Source: a virus (Duplodnaviria; Caudoviricetes). Taken from it: a DNA stretch of 64,000 bases. The notes under the pieces are model-generated. The model saw only the letters and a program-made list of their open reading frames with translations, searched no databases and had not been told where the DNA came from. The stretch is taken from positions 416,001 through 480,000 of IMG/VR virus record IMGVR_UViG_3300009031_000221; one strand, given 5' to 3'. The translations under genes and the position numbers were made by a program. The first letter of the stretch is position 1, and each line of letters starts with the position of its first letter. Positions 4,932-12,911 of this stretch are shown one piece after another.

Positions 4932-5382
4932 TGCTGCTTTCTCCCCGTGCCGCCTTCAAGTCCGCTACCAGTCGACGCAACATGTCAATGGTGGTGTACG
5001 CACATTCAGAATCCCCACCGGGCATGAACCCATCGAATTGCTCCTGTGTGTACTTCTCCAAGTAGCACGTATGGAAAAGGATGTATTCCAAGTCGGTTTC
5101 GGTCAAGGGCCCTGCCTTAGCGGGGTCGTTGAACACCGTGAGGGGGCGGTCATAGCTAGTAACGTCATAGGTCAGGAATACCGTCACCCAATGGCAAGGA
5201 ATCCCATTCTCCCGGATAAATTCACGCATTCCGGTCTTGGACGGGTCGTCGCGGCACAATTCTTCATCCTCAAACAATTCGGCGCCCTCAAGCGGTCCCC
5301 AGGCCTTAGGATCTGTAACACAGTCACACCTATGGTAGTACTGCTTTGCTTCATTCTGGAGCGCATACATCGCGATTTGCAT
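4918..5382 (-). CDS. hypothetical protein
   Basis: Gene tiling. Confidence 0.6.
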   Translation of the reverse strand: MQIAMYALQNEAKQYYHRCDCVTDPKAWGPLEGAELFEDEELCRDDPSKTGMREFIRENGIPCHWVTVFLTYDVTSYDRPLTVFNDPAKAGPLTETDLEYILFHTCYLEKYTQEQFDGFMPGGDSECAYTTIDMLRRLVADLKAARGESSNEGA

Positions 5383-5385
5383 CGG

Positions 5386-5643
5386 TTACTTCTTTAGGGC
5401 CTTGGCCTCATCGTAAAGGAATTCTGTGATGCGGCTATCCGCTTTTGCCATTGCACCGTCCCACCCTTCACCGTAGATGTAGTGGAGGATGCCAGTATTG
5501 TAATCGTAGAGCGTCCACATGGTGGGGATTTGCTGTGGGGATGTTTGAAACAACACGAACCGGGGAGGATCCTCAGGAAGGTATGCCCGAACAGGGACTT
5601 TCTTCCTTCCCTGCTGTGCATCTTGAATTTCGCTCCAGGCCAT
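5386..5643 (-). CDS. hypothetical protein
   Basis: Gene tiling; start trimmed to ATG 5643. Confidence 0.55.
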   Translation of the reverse strand: MAWSEIQDAQQGRKKVPVRAYLPEDPPRFVLFQTSPQQIPTMWTLYDYNTGILHYIYGEGWDGAMAKADSRITEFLYDEAKALKK

Positions 5644-5654
5644 TGCCGAGTCCC

Positions 5655-6458
5655 CTAATTCACCAGCGCCCAAGCGTCATCACGGTCGATGATCAGCGTG
5701 GTGCTGGACTTGTTGTCCCGAACCGCCTTGAGCTTGCCGGAGTTGGCCTTCTTGTCTTCCGCCACAAGGTAGGTCAGCGTCTTGCCCGCCGAATCCTTGA
5801 CCGTGCCGCCCTGCTTCTCAATGGCGTCCTTCAAGGAAGAGTCACGGAAACCCGTGAAACAGAAGGACATTCCCAGGAGTTTGCCGCTAGCCTGCTGGAT
5901 GGTGATGCCGGCTTCGCCAATCAGTTTGCCGATGAGCCCCGCCTTCTCCTGGAAGCCCATGACAAAGGCCTCCGCCGTCGTCTGGCTGAAGCCAGGGATT
6001 GCGGCGATTTCGGAGATACGGGCCTTCATCATCTTCGAGAGGGTGTTGAACCCGGCATCCGCAATCGACTGGGCCATCGAACGGCCAATCATCGGGATGC
6101 CAAGCGAACCCACGAAGGTGCTAAGGGAAAGGATTTTCTTTGCGTTCAGGTTGGTAACCGCCTTGTCACCGGAACCGCCAACGCGACGGCCACCGATTTC
6201 CAGGTCGGCAACCGCAACCGGGTCAAGCAGGTAGAGGTCAGCGATGTCCGTCACGAAACCCGCCTCAATGAGCGCCTCGATCAGGGTATCGCCAACGTGC
6301 AGGACGCCAATCTTCTTGACCCAGCGCTTGATGGAGCCGGAGGCCTGTGCCTCGCAGTCATCGTTGCGGCAAACCAAGTATTCGCCGTCCCGCGTCAAGT
6401 TGCCCTTGCAGGAGGGGCATTGCGTCGGAATCGTGAAGTATGCACGCGTGGTTGTCAT
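5655..6458 (-). CDS. ligA: NAD+-dependent DNA ligase, C-terminal part (Zn finger, HhH, BRCT)
   Basis: CPSC..C...C zinc finger, GSLGIPMIG HhH, LLGMSFCFTG BRCT; own promoter element and RBS. Confidence 0.92.
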   Translation of the reverse strand: MTTTRAYFTIPTQCPSCKGNLTRDGEYLVCRNDDCEAQASGSIKRWVKKIGVLHVGDTLIEALIEAGFVTDIADLYLLDPVAVADLEIGGRRVGGSGDKAVTNLNAKKILSLSTFVGSLGIPMIGRSMAQSIADAGFNTLSKMMKARISEIAAIPGFSQTTAEAFVMGFQEKAGLIGKLIGEAGITIQQASGKLLGMSFCFTGFRDSSLKDAIEKQGGTVKDSAGKTLTYLVAEDKKANSGKLKAVRDNKSSTTLIIDRDDAWALVN

Positions 6459-6498
6459 CGTATGAGTCCTTGAGGAGATCGTCTGTCCCCTGTGATGT

Positions 6499-6525
6499 AT
6501 CTACGCGGAACGGAGGAAAAGTAAG
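6499..6525 (-). promoter_or_regulatory. conserved promoter-like element (drives ligase C-half)
   Basis: CTTACTT-N12-GCGTAGAT; hairpin AGGGGA-CAGACGA-TCTCCT at 6473..6491. Confidence 0.85.
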
Positions 6526-6575
6526 CCCGTCAAGGTTGAACAATTTCGTGCTCAACATAGTACTCGAATGATACG

Positions 6576-6941
6576 CTAGTTGATCTCCGGAGAAATGGTG
6601 AGATTTTGACGCTGGTCAAAGGCTACAATGACGGTTTGGTCATCATTAATGATGTGACCATAGGCGGTCAAATCATCTAATAGCATATCCTGACATTTCG
6701 CGAATCCTTCCAACGTTTTTTCAGTGACGGATCCTGTCCACTTCACCTCGCGGAATGATTGACACACGTAGCATTCAATGTCATCGGGGTCTCCTCCCAT
6801 GGGGGCATCTGTGAAAGTTACTAGCCGACTCCCCTTAGGCAGTGGATCCGGTATTGCCTCCAATTCAGGTACGGGATCAACATCTACACGACCTCGCAAA
6901 GGGGTATACCGATGCTGATAACATATTCTCAAATATGCCAT
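6576..6941 (-). CDS. hypothetical protein (in ligase insertion)
   Basis: Start 2 nt after the TnsA-like stop. Confidence 0.55.
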   Translation of the reverse strand: MAYLRICYQHRYTPLRGRVDVDPVPELEAIPDPLPKGSRLVTFTDAPMGGDPDDIECYVCQSFREVKWTGSVTEKTLEGFAKCQDMLLDDLTAYGHIINDDQTVIVAFDQRQNLTISPEIN

Positions 6942-6943
6942 GG

Positions 6944-7765
6944 TTAATTCTCCAATGCGGATAATGCTAACATTGTCCACGCTTTGTGTTCCATACGCTC
7001 GATCCTATCAAGGGATAGGACACCACTATTCATGTTGTGCGTTGCGGCATACTGATGCAACGCCTCAATCTTCACTTTAGTCTTGGGATCATTTAGGAAT
7101 TCCTTGGGTTTGATTTCCCAAAGCTCCTGAATCCCACCCTCAAGTGTCACCAATAGATCAGGGATGTATTGGTGCTGCTGTCCCTCAAATGTGTACGGGA
7201 TCGCAAAGGGTTCGACTTCTACTTCTTCTACTTCATCGTATTGATCCAGAACCCAAAGCACCCGCCGTTCCCAGGATGATCGAACGTAGACCATCTGATC
7301 GGCTTTCACTGATAAAACCCACCCGGCATGGAACTTTTGATTTCGCACCCAATCTGGATGAGCCCGGATGTAATCCATAGTTCGTTGAGAGCATGCTGCC
7401 CGAAAATCTGGATTGTTCCGATGAACATTGTACTGGGCGATGGTTTCGGGGGTATGCCTCATACCTCGGCGTTTCGTAGCGGCTATTTCTGAAGAATTAG
7501 CGGATCTCAAGCTATCCATGCCAAAGGCCTTCTTGAAGGACTCCGCATCAGGGTAGCCATGCTTCTTGTAATGATGCGCTGAAATGCAATTAAGTTTCAC
7601 CTGACATACCGGGCATGTCAATGCATCCGATGCTAATGTAACACACCGATTCTTACGTCCTCGTATTAGGGGCTGGAGGGCTTGACATGCAGAGCACCAC
7701 TTAGGGTGGCTAAATTTGGTTCGCTTGGTTATATCCGCCCCGCAAGGGCATTTCAATTCATCCAT
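6944..7765 (-). CDS. TnsA-like PD-(D/E)XK endonuclease with N-terminal Zn/NUMOD3-like DNA-binding parts (putative homing endonuclease)
   Basis: YVRSSWERR, EPFAIPY, YIPDLLV, WEIKPK; RHTPETIA NUMOD3-like. Confidence 0.75.
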   Translation of the reverse strand: MDELKCPCGADITKRTKFSHPKWCSACQALQPLIRGRKNRCVTLASDALTCPVCQVKLNCISAHHYKKHGYPDAESFKKAFGMDSLRSANSSEIAATKRRGMRHTPETIAQYNVHRNNPDFRAACSQRTMDYIRAHPDWVRNQKFHAGWVLSVKADQMVYVRSSWERRVLWVLDQYDEVEEVEVEPFAIPYTFEGQQHQYIPDLLVTLEGGIQELWEIKPKEFLNDPKTKVKIEALHQYAATHNMNSGVLSLDRIERMEHKAWTMLALSALEN

Positions 7766-7766
7766 G

Positions 7767-8774
7767 TTAGTAGTCCCGATCGGACTTCCCGAATAACGTT
7801 ACCTCCAAAGGGGTCATTACATCCGAATCCTTGCGGCGACGCCCCGCATTGATTGCCCCCTGAATAGACTTGATGATGCCGATATGCCCAACTTTCAAAG
7901 TATTATTCTGCCCCAAGGCGGCACTGATCGTATCCGAATGCTGGACAAACAAGGGCACGAGCCTATCGGCAGCCAAGCTGGTATTCAGCTTATCTTGGTT
8001 CTCGTTCCAGATCAGAAATATGATGGGCATGATGTTAATACCCCAAAGCGGCAACTTGGTGGCGCCTTTCGTTGAAAGGGTTCTCGTTGCAATAGGATTC
8101 CACCAATTTAGGAAATTTGCCATCTTCTGGAACTTAGAAGGATCATCGATATACATCATGTCCTCCGTAGCATTCCGAGAAACTACCATCTGTGTGATTC
8201 GTTTCTTGGAAATACAATCATCAAGCCGCACTTGCATGTTTATTACGGAAGTCAGACTGGCAGGCCCAGGCTTCTGAAAGGCATTATTGGTATCCAGCAA
8301 CCCCGCTTTCTTGAATACCGGAGTCCATTTGCACTCCCCTGATCGTTGCCCGATCTTTGCACTAGCCCCTGCCGTTAAGATCGAACCGGCATTCTTGCTA
8401 TTGAGCGCATAGAAGTAACGATGCACCGCATTGCGGCTACTGCAAGCCGTAAGGGTAACTGGAAAGTCATTGATGGTATCATGAATCGTAGCGGTCATAA
8501 CTCGATCAGATTCGGTAACATCATTGGATTCCGACAAGCAGTAAATGCGGTGTTGCCCATCAACAATAATGTATTCGTCTTTGTTCTTCGGGTGCTTGAG
8601 GAGTACCAGATCGCCCTTGATGCGAACGATGTCCCACGATGACCCTAATGCTACAGCCCGTTTCTTTGCGATAGGCCGATTGACGAATCCAAACCCATGT
8701 TCAAGCTTGAACAGGTGGAATTTCGTCCCCAGGGATCCCTTCTCGATAGATATATTGCACTTTGTAGTAGCCAT
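7767..8774 (-). CDS. DGQHR (ParB/Srx-fold) domain protein
   Basis: YIIVDGQHRIY motif; visibly lower GC than the ligase halves. Confidence 0.7.
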   Translation of the reverse strand: MATTKCNISIEKGSLGTKFHLFKLEHGFGFVNRPIAKKRAVALGSSWDIVRIKGDLVLLKHPKNKDEYIIVDGQHRIYCLSESNDVTESDRVMTATIHDTINDFPVTLTACSSRNAVHRYFYALNSKNAGSILTAGASAKIGQRSGECKWTPVFKKAGLLDTNNAFQKPGPASLTSVINMQVRLDDCISKKRITQMVVSRNATEDMMYIDDPSKFQKMANFLNWWNPIATRTLSTKGATKLPLWGINIMPIIFLIWNENQDKLNTSLAADRLVPLFVQHSDTISAALGQNNTLKVGHIGIIKSIQGAINAGRRRKDSDVMTPLEVTLFGKSDRDY

Positions 8775-8886
8775 TGATGATATCCTTGATGTGCGGGTGA
8801 AATTACCCGGTAGATGATCTACCCGGCTAAGGGATCAAATTAACCTACCCTTAGCACTAAATCAAGGAATAAATTTCGAAGGCCCT

Positions 8887-10041
8887 TTAGATGTCATTCA
8901 CGATGCCTTCATCAACATTGGCTTCCAAGCGCGGAATAACGTCGTTCCTCTTGGAAACCAGGACGTTGCATCCTGGGAACAACTTGAGATGCTCGACTTG
9001 GCGAACTCCCGCAAGGCTAGCACGGGTAACCTTGGCCCCGCCAAGAATGACCTCATCAAAGATCGCAACGGGGGTGATTCGGCCCGAGTTGCCAACCTGC
9101 CATTGGATATCACGGATGATCGTCCGCTTTGCCTCGAAGGGAAACTTGTAGGCGATCGAACCCTTAGGGCGCCCGCCCAAATCTCCGTGGATTTCCCGGA
9201 TAACCGTATCGTCAATCTCGACAACGAGACCATCAATTTCGTATCCGATCGCCTTCCGCTTGCTCGCACAGTAGATCTGGTATTCCGCCTGAACTTCAGC
9301 CAAGGCTTTCCATACCGACCATTTCGGCGTTTGGAACCCCATGTCTTCCAATGCCAGGAGTTCCGTGGACTTCGATGCCATGGACACGCCTTGCGGCATC
9401 AGGTTGTAGCTCTTGAATGTCAAGTAGGAGCACTTGGCGAAATCGGTCTGCCGCATCAACGTGCCCGTGGCAGAGTTACGTGGGTTGGATTCACCCGGGA
9501 AATGCCGTGCAAAGTCCGTGTGCATGATGATGACTTCGCCCCGAACCCAAACATTGGCGGGAGTCGGATTGCCATCAGGCAGGAATGGGGGAAGCATCTT
9601 CACAACGCCCTGCATCAACATGGCATTGCGAGTAACTTCCTGGCCAATGGAACCATCGCCACGAGTCACTGCCTGAACCAGCACCCTATTGAGGTAATGC
9701 ATGCTCAAAGAGCAACCGTCAAGCTTGTCCATGACGATCAGGGATGATTGAGCGCTGCAACTCGTTACCCAGGCCTGCATGTCCTCGAAGAGCTGTGCCT
9801 TGTTCAGGGAACTCATCGGGATGGTGTGCTTGACCTTGGGCCAACCACCGGCAGTCGGACCTTGCGACACGGGAGCGCCGATGGTCTTCAGGAATGCGTG
9901 GTTAGGATCCAACTTGCGGAGGTCATCCTCAACAGAGTCGTAGACCGGATCGCTGACCAGAGGGGTTCCGGCGTAGTATGCCGCTTTCCACTTGGTCAGA
10001 TTGGCAACCATCTGATCGATTTGTGCTTGGTTCGCGTTCAC
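8887..10041 (-). CDS. ligA: NAD+-dependent DNA ligase, N-terminal part (Ia, adenylation, OB)
   Basis: YY..P.VSD..YD, PMSSL, KLDG, TRGDG, RGEV, NPRN, IDGLV, AYKFP, GRITPVA, NDVIP; ends with TAA after the OB fold. Confidence 0.93.
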   Translation of the reverse strand: MNANQAQIDQMVANLTKWKAAYYAGTPLVSDPVYDSVEDDLRKLDPNHAFLKTIGAPVSQGPTAGGWPKVKHTIPMSSLNKAQLFEDMQAWVTSCSAQSSLIVMDKLDGCSLSMHYLNRVLVQAVTRGDGSIGQEVTRNAMLMQGVVKMLPPFLPDGNPTPANVWVRGEVIIMHTDFARHFPGESNPRNSATGTLMRQTDFAKCSYLTFKSYNLMPQGVSMASKSTELLALEDMGFQTPKWSVWKALAEVQAEYQIYCASKRKAIGYEIDGLVVEIDDTVIREIHGDLGGRPKGSIAYKFPFEAKRTIIRDIQWQVGNSGRITPVAIFDEVILGGAKVTRASLAGVRQVEHLKLFPGCNVLVSKRNDVIPRLEANVDEGIVNDI

Positions 10042-10084
10042 TGGGGGCTCCCTCTATAGGACATCGTCTGTGCCCTTACGTACG

Positions 10085-10111
10085 ATCTACGCTAAAAGAG
10101 GCAGAAGTAAG
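10085..10111 (-). promoter_or_regulatory. conserved promoter-like element (drives ligase N-half)
   Basis: CTTACTT-N12-GCGTAGAT; hairpin GGGCA-CAGACGA-TGTCC at 10059..10075. Confidence 0.85.
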
Positions 10112-10118
10112 TCTAGAC

Positions 10119-10328
10119 CTACCGTGGGAATTCTATCGAATCGGCACCATTATCACACCACTTCCGGCATGAAATATTTCTACGAGGATCCCCGTTTTCG
10201 CAACGCTTGGTGCATCGTTGAACACTGCTGGCTTGGTTGCCCAGGTATACGCCAACGGAAGCCCCCGCAATACAAATCAACACAAAAGCTACAATCAACC
10301 ATCCCTTTGCGGACATTCTATCCTCCAT
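10119..10328 (-). CDS. small membrane protein
   Basis: One TM segment plus Cys-rich tail. Confidence 0.55.
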   Translation of the reverse strand: MEDRMSAKGWLIVAFVLICIAGASVGVYLGNQASSVQRCTKRCENGDPRRNISCRKWCDNGADSIEFPR

Positions 10329-10377
10329 ACGAAGTTGCCTCTACATCACATCTACGATGTACCCTCGAATAGTAAGT

Positions 10378-10560
10378 CTAGCGCTGAACGATGTGCCACC
10401 CTTGGTGAATCACATTGGAGATTTCCTCAGCCAACGCGGGGTCAAGGACTCGTACCAGTTCACGCAATGAATGAAGGTCAAAGGATTGCGTCTCCTTGAC
10501 CGTCCATCCAAGGACTTTCGCGATTCGTTCGTGCATGGCGCTCTCCCCTAGTCGTCCCAA
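10378..10560 (-). CDS. hypothetical protein
   Basis: Gene tiling. Confidence 0.55.
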   Translation of the reverse strand: MGRLGESAMHERIAKVLGWTVKETQSFDLHSLRELVRVLDPALAEEISNVIHQGWHIVQR

Positions 10561-10811
10561 TGAATCAGTTGTTCCACCGTGTAATCCTCGGGAAGGGTTT
10601 CAAAGGGATCCAGTTCTTCCCACTGTGCCTCCGAAATCGTATCCCCCTGGGCATAACTCTGGGTGTGTTCCTTGCCTTCATTCCACCGCACACTACCATC
10701 CTCGAACAGGAAGATGGTGTAGTCCACGTCGTACGTCAACGAATCATCAGAGCTATCGTCTCCGTAATGGAATGCATACAAGAACCCGAATGTTCGTTTG
10801 ATTGTCCTCAT
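10548..10811 (-). CDS. hypothetical protein
   Basis: Gene tiling. Confidence 0.6.
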   Translation of the reverse strand: MRTIKRTFGFLYAFHYGDDSSDDSLTYDVDYTIFLFEDGSVRWNEGKEHTQSYAQGDTISEAQWEELDPFETLPEDYTVEQLIHWDD

Positions 10812-11888: not shown

Positions 11889-12170
11889 CTAGGACTTGAT
11901 AATCTTGATGCGGGACCACTTGGCTACGGATCCATCGGATTTGCCCTGCTGGTAGTAGGATGTCCGATAGGTTTGACCCGCCTTGATGCCGGTGTTGGCA
12001 TTGTCTGTCTTGGCGGTATGAATCCGCGTCCGTAGGAGTTGTTTGGGGCTATCCCGTTTCGGGGCCTTGGTGTCCAGAGCTTGATACATGGACTCAGCAC
12101 AATCATAGCCCGTCATTTCGGCCAGATCTTCATCTGAGCAAATCAAATCTTCATCGTGTCCGTAACCCAT
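11889..12170 (-). CDS. hypothetical protein
   Basis: Stop abuts the element at 11885. Confidence 0.65.
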   Translation of the reverse strand: MGYGHDEDLICSDEDLAEMTGYDCAESMYQALDTKAPKRDSPKQLLRTRIHTAKTDNANTGIKAGQTYRTSYYQQGKSDGSVAKWSRIKIIKS

Positions 12171-12182
12171 GGTAAATCCTTG

Positions 12183-12557
12183 TTAGGACAGTTGCGTGCC
12201 GCAGGTGCAAGATGATTGGAAGTTGTGTTCGCCTCGGGCTTCCGGATGGCAGCACCAAAGGCAAAGCAGCACGCCCGTCTTCTTGGAATGCGGAAGCGGG
12301 TTCGGAGCGATCTCATGGTTGGCTTGCGCCCGCTGGGCCTGCCGGGCGTTCCACTGGGCAATGCCATAGTCTTCAACGCACTTCGCCAAGTCCGCATCCG
12401 CACAGTCATCCGAAACGGCACCCATCAACGTGTACGCCCCAGGGGCGTTCAAGTTTTCGCATGCCCCTACCCGCCAAAGCCCGCCGCCGTAGATGATGTA
12501 CAAGCATTCACCAATCTGCAATGCCTGGCCAAGGCGATTGATTTTCGAGTTCGTCAT
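12183..12557 (-). CDS. hypothetical protein
   Basis: Downstream of element at 12616; start trimmed to ATG 12557. Confidence 0.65.
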   Translation of the reverse strand: MTNSKINRLGQALQIGECLYIIYGGGLWRVGACENLNAPGAYTLMGAVSDDCADADLAKCVEDYGIAQWNARQAQRAQANHEIAPNPLPHSKKTGVLLCLWCCHPEARGEHNFQSSCTCGTQLS

Positions 12558-12615
12558 GGAGTACCCCTGAAACAGCAACGAGTTTCTTGAGGACATCGTC
12601 TGTGCCCTACACATC

Positions 12616-12642
12616 ATCTACGCTACAATCGGCGGAAGTAAG
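12616..12642 (-). promoter_or_regulatory. conserved promoter-like element
   Basis: CTTACTT-N12-GCGTAGAT; hairpin GGGCA-CAGACGA-TGTCC at 12591..12607. Confidence 0.85.
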
Positions 12643-12911
12643 TCCCAGTAGGTGATGAATTCGTCTTGAGTCCATGCACCGCTTTCCCTAGCCGGCCAGT
12701 TCTTCGCGTCCCATGGAATGGTTTTGTAGGGCATCATCTGCTTCATGTCCAGAAGGTCAATGGCGTCCCCTTCCTCGAACTTCTGTTCCCCTTCCTTGCC
12801 GTAGTTCCAGAATACGTAGATGGAGTTGATGATGAACACCGTGTAGTGAACATCTAGACCATCCGCATCCTTCTCAGGGTACAGAAACTGGACTGTCTTT
12901 GTGATTAGCAT
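12618..12911 (-). CDS. hypothetical protein
   Basis: Stop is the TAG of the GCGTAGAT box. Confidence 0.55.
   Translation of the reverse strand: MLITKTVQFLYPEKDADGLDVHYTVFIINSIYVFWNYGKEGEQKFEEGDAIDLLDMKQMMPYKTIPWDAKNWPARESGAWTQDEFITYWDLLPPIVA

Follow-up and report, generated by a model that had tools for sequence, protein, structure and literature searches.

The 64,000-nucleotide stretch of DNA analyzed here (the window) comprises bases 416001–480000 of the 536,053-bp virus record IMGVR_UViG_3300009031_000221 (Duplodnaviria, Caudoviricetes), a groundwater phage whose genome is estimated to be complete, and it encodes an NAD+-dependent DNA ligase (LigA) as two separate genes. The first of these, LigN (8887..10041, minus strand), starts with GTG and codes for 384 amino acids that comprise domain Ia, the adenylation domain with its K106-L-D-G motif and the oligonucleotide-binding (OB) domain; a Shine-Dalgarno (SD) sequence, GAGGGAG, precedes it at 10054–10048. 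The protein ends in ..VDEGIVNDI, followed by TAA, as part of the conserved tail ..EANVDEGIVNDI. The second gene, LigC (5655..6458, minus strand; SD sequence AAGGA at 6471–6467), codes for 267 amino acids beginning with MTTTRAYFTIPTQCPSC, where the short leader MTTTRAYF precedes a C4 zinc finger (C14, C17, C30 and C35), the helix-hairpin-helix (HhH) region and a BRCT domain. The coordinates, lengths and termini agree exactly with those given in an earlier model-made reading of the same letters (hereafter, the sequence-only reading).

The two products are recognized by the expected ligase families. LigN matches PF01653 with 134 bits and PF03120 with 65 bits, and LigC matches HHH_5, HHH_2 and BRCT, each past its cut-off. 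On phrog_3869, the profile of full-length phage LigA with 656 positions, LigN covers positions 2–383 and LigC positions 388–635, so the halves are complementary and non-overlapping, as had been proposed. The alignments of LigN with residues 7–387 of Escherichia coli LigA and of LigC with residues 402–634 of Thermus filiformis LigA place the break in the linker between the OB domain and the zinc finger, with nothing missing or extra. Instead of a single polypeptide, the ligase is thus laid out as two open reading frames (ORFs) separated by 2,428 bp, the 2.4 kb of the sequence-only reading, each with its own stop codon, ribosome-binding site (RBS) and start. Only one LigA adenylation domain was found in the whole 536-kb genome. 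The region is soundly assembled. In a check that used contigs only, 5400–10200 lay within a single contig, with zero differences, in each of four run assemblies of one groundwater study, which may include the source sample. No RNA run was listed among the public runs that carry it.

Both halves look functional from the residues that they retain. LigN homologs keep K106, D108 and G109 of motif I as well as E169, D270, G271 and K299, while Y22, D31 and D35 are invariant; on the other side of the break, the four zinc-finger cysteines are invariant across 51 stand-alone C-halves. One position appears to depart from the E. coli pattern. In LigN residues 269–277 (IDGLVVEID, window 9217–9243), the motif IV position that would correspond to the lysine of E. 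coli LigA (K290 of DGVVIK) holds E/D instead. Of the 64 split homologs, 53 have E/D there, as do 52 of the 56 fused (single-chain) ones, and T5 has R. Since fused and split forms alike carry it, the substitution appears to be a clade trait that is independent of the split.

The gap between the halves has a GC content of 0.475, compared with 0.548 in LigN and 0.590 in LigC, and contains three ORFs on the minus strand. The central one (6944..7765, 273 amino acids) encodes a TnsA-like nuclease of the PD-(D/E)xK type that matches PF08722 with 44.2 bits against a cut-off of 26.5 and carries a Cys/His zinc-finger-like region at its N-terminus. The E..PD..ExK motif is retained in gap nucleases, and the homologs align end to end. 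This protein is a putative site-specific endonuclease of the homing type. A MucR/Ros identity for its zinc-finger region found no support in Pfam, which gives weak C2H2-type matches there and, in relatives, sub-threshold NUMOD3 matches. In GenBank phages the nuclease finds partial core matches only, none of them full length; the match in LR756511, an uncultured phage of 595 kb, does not adjoin a ligase.

On the LigN side of the nuclease lies a gene for 335 amino acids (7767..8774, GC 0.478) whose product has a DGQHR motif and is ParB/Srx-like; family searches gave TIGR03187 and TIGR04172, both sub-threshold, and atlas leads pointed to phage clusters that are ParB_N/GmrSD_N-like. Among the loci inspected, this gene occurs in the gap of this phage only. 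It exactly fills the space from the stop of LigN to the start of the nuclease, two genes that abut in relatives, and it looks like a secondary insertion into the gap. On the LigC side, a 134-amino-acid ORFan (6576..6980) overlaps the end of the nuclease gene by 37 nucleotides; family searches returned no match for it, and it shows no similarity to a 123-amino-acid ORF in the gap of a relative (L167). Neither the DGQHR-like protein nor the ORFan matches a transposase family, the insert genes match no defence system in PADLOC, and no further copy of them was found elsewhere in the 536-kb genome. The combination of TnsA, a TnsB transposase and transposon ends that marks a Tn7-like transposon is not present at the gap. 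The comparison of a ligase interrupted at the OB–zinc finger linker with Aeh1 nrdA and its mobE endonuclease fits: the lower-GC insert carries an endonuclease gene, and no intron or intein accompanies it.

It is scarcely credible that a self-splicing intron, a split intein or translational bypass restores a single chain from the two ORFs. A search of 5000–10800 against Rfam gave no family at E-values up to 1, and this absence rules out an intron, the case that the sequence-only reading had set against its own proposal. An intein or bypass is ruled out by the anatomy, as the halves together account for a complete LigA and contain neither additional sequence the size of an intein nor any other extra protein at the break. 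Further points against rejoining are the stop, RBS and start that each half possesses, the three ORFs between them, and the placement of the halves on opposite strands in another clade (see below).

Upstream of both halves the same order of elements was found, namely (G)CTTACTT-N11-12-GCGTAGAT, a 6-bp hairpin and the SD sequence. Before LigN this cassette occupies 10058..10113 on the minus strand, with GACTTACTT at 10113–10105, GCGTAGAT at 10092–10085 and a hairpin with a CAGACGA loop at 10076–10058; before LigC it occupies 6473..6527, also on the minus strand, with GGCTTACTT at 6527–6519, GCGTAGAT at 6506–6499 and the CAGACGA-loop hairpin at 6491–6473. The claim that each half has its own element and RBS was therefore correct. 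The bipartite motif CTTACT-N12-16-GTAGAT has 101 copies in the 536-kb genome, compared with 0–1 in shuffled sequences, and the copies nearly always have an ORF start shortly downstream; judged by this distribution, it behaves like the phage's own promoter. Consensus scans for sigma-70 promoters and for terminators gave nothing beyond chance, with no terminator after LigN. The CAGACGA-loop hairpin itself follows only five of the approximately 100 promoter-like elements, at window positions 10058–10076 and 6473–6491 and at genome positions 502835 (plus), 435779 (minus) and 428623 (minus), with the stem variants AGGGCA/TGTCCT, AGGGGA/TCTCCT, GGCA/TGCC and CCCA/TGGG. At the corresponding place, CGAACGA-type loops occur in relatives (L003).

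Among the best 120 LigN homologs (45–67% identity, many on contigs of 0.2–0.5 Mb), there are 64 stand-alone N-halves of 362–404 amino acids and 56 fused ligases of 633–671 amino acids, which provides the fused counterparts that the sequence-only reading had suggested looking for in related phages. Stand-alone C-halves number about 100, at 33–71% identity. The phages that bear the split are uncultivated and mostly huge. Megablast of the split-ligase region against GenBank phages gave no close relative, and a single-protein scan of IMG/VR gave no near-identical or close one. An alignment-based scan of IMG/VR yielded chiefly fused ligases together with a second split clade, and among the matches listed in a metagenome scan most were bacterial LigA, with one useful locus (L085).

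The gene context was inspected at ten split loci, including this window. In eight of them the gap is occupied by a homologous TnsA-like nuclease: it lies between the halves in the window, L004 and L165–L167, and end-to-end homologs sit in the ligase gap of L004, L165–L169 and the P0232 contig. All three loci that were chosen by similarity to the nuclease alone have it in the ligase gap. The gaps of L003 and of the P0002 contig are empty and measure 72–78 bp. L003 and L004 have N-bodies that are 81% identical, and the nuclease is present in L004 only, so that the element shows a fixed site with presence or absence among relatives. Wherever DNA was available (six loci), each half has a promoter-like element in front of it, in that phage's own motif dialect; the equivalents of the LigC element were located in L003, L004 and L165–L167, and the spacer of L003 consists of little beyond it.

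These relatives bear on the history that the sequence-only reading had proposed, in which a one-off insertion of 2.4 kb entered the intact ligA of this lineage and a copy of the promoter cassette rescued the downstream half. The lower GC content of the insert fits such an event, and its three-gene content is unique to this phage among the loci inspected. However, the junction and the tail recur, together with a second promoter, in relatives whose identity falls to about 38%, with or without an insert; those with the junction range over 38–67% identity, and two are insert-free. Since even insert-free relatives carry the element, the LigC promoter is, in the six loci with DNA, a standing part of the junction and not a private rescue. 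We regard the recent insertion as very improbable.

A second clade of split LigA was identified in huge phages (L050, L060, L061, L062, L069, L072 and L076, on IMG/VR contigs of 35–436 kb), with N-halves that are 34–38% identical to LigN. Here, LigC is encoded on the opposite strand, upstream of LigN at a distance that ranges from some hundreds of bp to ~1.2 kb, and the two genes are transcribed divergently; in L050, for example, LigN occupies 6998–8101 (plus) and LigC 6331–5537 (minus). Because they are encoded on opposite strands, the halves of this clade must act in trans. Most of its N-halves end in a related ..IE.NLD.. tail, and their junction may share ancestry with that of the window.

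The junction of the main clade has a distinct composition. All 64 split N-halves end in a common tail, ..RRNDVIPRVEANLDEGIxNDL, at a place where the linker of fused ligases is variable; within the tail, N is kept in 64, G in 50 and I in 46 of the 64 proteins. By this conservation, set against the variable fused linker, the split forms possess new terminal tails under selection, as expected of genes in pieces of the Aeh1 type. The remainder of the gene tells a different story. On the N-half tree without the tail, 13–15 changes between the split and fused states are required, and 32 on residues 1–335, for which an approximately unbiased test rejects a single split clade (difference in log-likelihood 1042, p 2.7e-37). 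On residues 336–373, by contrast, one change parts all 64 split from all 56 fused forms, and the split forms have in common a deletion of 5–9 residues and several diagnostic substitutions at the OB end. Eleven split forms nest among fused sisters, with which they have identities of 0.6–0.9 over residues 1–340 but only 0.41–0.55 over the last 44; over the same last 44 residues their identity to LigN of this phage rises to 0.57–0.82. In the C-halves, the departure from the fused sisters is confined to the leader, the first ~20 residues, and the remainder is 0.6–0.95 identical, mostly at least 0.8. Because the split forms are united by the OB end but not by the remaining gene, the simplest reading of these mosaics is that the junction segment has a single origin and was placed by recombination into many ligase backgrounds.

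As to what moved the junction, nuclease-driven homing appears most likely. Free-standing homing endonucleases that cut away from their own gene are copied in together with flanking sequence, leaving an asymmetric tract (PMC2988022). The mosaic is what such co-conversion of flanking sequence would leave, and it is not exclusive to co-conversion. A rival explanation holds that the split is ancient and happened once, that the nuclease, and in this phage also the DGQHR gene and the ORFan, settled later in the safe harbour offered by a gap flanked by two conserved genes, and that ordinary homologous recombination among co-infecting phages made the mosaic. Several observations are in line with it: two loci have empty gaps; L003 has instead a GIY-YIG gene after LigC (12058–12879, with a faint NUMOD3 match, beginning at the last base of the LigC stop); T5 and the divergently oriented clade are split without a TnsA-like nuclease; nuclease divergence roughly parallels ligase divergence; and two fused forms nest within the main split clade, implying conversion both ways. 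Against it, every nuclease homolog with readable context lies in the exact ligase gap, including the three that were chosen without regard to the ligase, and in L004, L165, L167 and L168 the stop of LigN is directly adjoined or overlapped by the nuclease gene. Moreover, the tract is asymmetric, with ~40 amino acids on the N side and at most 20 on the C side, as an offset cleavage site predicts (PMC2988022). On balance we consider the later settling of the nuclease unlikely.

Several points nevertheless weigh against a nuclease-borne junction of single origin. The gap nucleases are as diverged as the ligases (36–67% identity), and no recent transfer was caught; vertical descent combined with ordinary recombination could yield the same mosaic. 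The common OB-end allele could in principle reflect parallel adaptation to being split, which is argued against by the deletion common to all 64 split forms. The promoter dialect before LigC is that of the resident phage, and horizontal movement of the cassette then needs an additional explanation. The hairpins in the two elements fold no better than shuffled sequences (z of -0.34 before LigN and -0.74 before LigC), compensatory stem changes between copies being the sole support for the CAGACGA-loop hairpins. Finally, the trees come from quick searches on metagenomic proteins, and N- and C-halves were matched up partly via equal contig size.

With these points taken into account, we consider it probable that the phage has a two-subunit LigA, with a mobile split junction of single origin that was spread by a TnsA-like homing nuclease. 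The only LigA of the phage would consist of two polypeptides that join on nicked DNA and work as one ligase, as in the T5-type LigA/LigB pair. By analogy with Aeh1 NrdA, the subunits may dock through the acidic tail of LigN and, less clearly, through the R-x-Y-F leader of LigC. The junction allele would be made up of the OB-end version (~40 residues with the 5–9-residue deletion), the acidic tail and a stop codon, followed by a spacer with the promoter-like element and RBS, a new start and the short leader before the zinc finger. During co-infection, ligase alleles that lack the nuclease gene would be cleaved by the nuclease and then repaired on the template of the occupied allele, thereby gaining both the nuclease gene and the split junction, so that the two-piece form spreads over otherwise unrelated ligase backgrounds. 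The gap of this phage would later have gained the ParB/DGQHR-like gene and the ORFan. The insert genes are probably read through from the LigN promoter, and LigC would additionally use its own.

A more far-reaching version of the homing scenario can be put forward only tentatively, and we give it somewhat less than even credence. According to it, the junction is a self-contained, gene-splitting mobile cassette, which brings the nuclease together with the stop codon, promoter and RBS, start and docking tail, and which, when huge phages co-infect a cell, turns their intact ligase genes into two-subunit genes that still work. The acidic tail would then be an assembly domain derived from the element, as in Aeh1 NrdA, and the gap would serve as a landing pad for cargo such as the ParB/DGQHR-like gene.

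The heterodimer put forward by the sequence-only reading was also addressed by the structure prediction that it had called for, and we still infer this complex rather than observe it. The median score for LigN with LigC was 0.55 compared with 0.00 for the best control, possibly reflecting memory of solved LigA or 9HU3 structures; the contacts agree by at least 90% between runs, and the pLDDT of the partner is at least 81. The calibration covered 80 solved complexes and 110 mismatched pairs, of which 58 and 2, respectively, reached the pass mark; 7 of the solved complexes and both mismatched pairs did so at scores of 0.60 or lower. A score of this size lends weak support to the complex. The weakness of that support speaks for the alternative that the halves do not cooperate, with LigN serving as a minimal ligase or adenylyltransferase, LigC having another DNA-binding role, or one half decaying. 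This alternative is hard to sustain, and we assign it a very low probability, given that both halves are present together in every locus read, whether adjacent, separated only by the gap genes or divergently paired, and that invariant functional residues are kept in more than 50 homologs of each. Nick sealing by E. coli LigA needs the HhH domain according to mutagenesis, which weighs against LigN acting alone.

The view that LigA is normally a single chain holds for the 56 fused forms, and it has to be qualified for T5-like phages, in which ligA (T5.116, 323 amino acids) and ligB (T5.117, 259 amino acids) are adjacent on the same strand and broken at the same OB–zinc finger boundary as in the window. 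The T5 break reads ..VIPCIVERVYD, then a stop, and MKIEIPTQCPSC. Genome papers on T5-like phages list the ligase subunits A and B, and two annotated promoters occupy the 202-bp spacer of T5, just as a promoter-like element is found between the halves in the window. In the solved structures of the PDB entries 9HU3 and 9I5I, "DNA ligase (NAD(+))" is bound to "DNA ligase subunit B", and their chains are T5-like (E-values of 8e-104 against T5 LigA and 3.8e-80 against T5 LigB). A literature search for a paper on 9HU3/9I5I or on a heterodimeric phage ligase found none in the library searched. The T5 half-families phrog_3359 and phrog_3498 are both matched by the halves of the window, more weakly than phrog_3869 (3.5e-47 versus 1.8e-89 for one half and 3.9e-30 versus 7.3e-40 for the other). 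In the N-half tree T5 forms a very long branch as the outgroup, and its reference genome has neither the NLDEGIxNDL tail nor a gap nuclease, unlike the window. Judging from these differences, the split in the window is likely independent in origin from that in T5.

Other genes are known to be split by free-standing endonucleases, including Aeh1 nrdA, T4 gene 39/60 and phage 25 gene 43 (PMC2988022). In the nrdA-a/mobE/nrdA-b arrangement of Aeh1 (Friedrich et al. 2007; Crona et al. 2011, PMC3045599), a free-standing endonuclease gene likewise lies inside an essential gene of DNA metabolism, with no intron or intein, and two tailed polypeptides result; the NrdA tails, which came into being through the mobE insertion, are required for the enzyme to be active (PMC3045599). 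The two cases differ in several respects. The nrdA gene is split in its active-site region, whereas the ligase is split between domains; the Aeh1 nuclease is of the HNH type, whereas that of the window is a TnsA-like PD-(D/E)xK protein. In addition, Aeh1 is a single phage in which function was tested, whereas the junction in the window is common to dozens of diverged phages, is mosaic and is read from sequence.

The intronless homing of the T4 seg and mob genes (PMC2988022) offers a second comparison, as there too the nuclease gene has conserved genes on both sides, adjoins or overlaps the stop codon of the upstream one, is present or absent among relatives and is accompanied by co-converted flanking coding sequence. 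In the window, homing is suggested by mosaics only, and the element lies inside a gene that is single elsewhere; unlike in T4, its homing would also switch the gene architecture from fused to split. With respect to TnsA of Tn7 (PF08722), the core of the window nuclease is past the Pfam cut-off and has the E..PD..ExK residues, but no TnsB-type transposase or other Tn7 gene is present in the gap, and the protein has the N-terminal Cys/His region. It fits a site-specific free-standing endonuclease and not a transposon subunit.

A two-piece NAD+-dependent ligase is itself already known from T5, and so are genes split by endonucleases. We have not found a description of the present lineage, of its TnsA-like nuclease or of evidence for a mobile junction cassette of single origin. 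Here, two known things are joined at scale, with one split junction and one nuclease family across dozens of diverged phages. If the proposal is true, a selfish element alters the architecture of a gene while carrying what keeps that gene working, which would illustrate a route by which essential genes come to encode several subunits. Two practical leads also follow: the free-standing PD-(D/E)xK nucleases are candidates for a new family of homing endonucleases whose target is defined, and the split point and tail, naturally optimised, could serve in the engineering of split ligases. With respect to annotation, the ligase "fragments" of huge phages should not be labelled pseudogenes.

Several minor observations were made around these loci. 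Downstream of LigC in the window, an ORF of 95 amino acids without a family match (5386–5673) overlaps the end of LigC by 19 nucleotides, suggesting translational coupling. In L063 (7001–8861), the C-half frame opens a few bases from the N-half stop (..LTKPQMEVQ, stop, and ..MFEMPRQCPVC), which may mean that this ligase is frameshifted, has overlapping halves or was split only recently. A second TnsA-like gene (6087–6719) is located 460 bp downstream of LigC in L169. Among several relatives, a recurring ligase neighbourhood includes an RNA ligase gene (PF09414) with a NUDIX gene upstream, and genes for radical SAM, EF-Ts, short release factor, ClpP and PARP-like proteins are also found near their split ligases.

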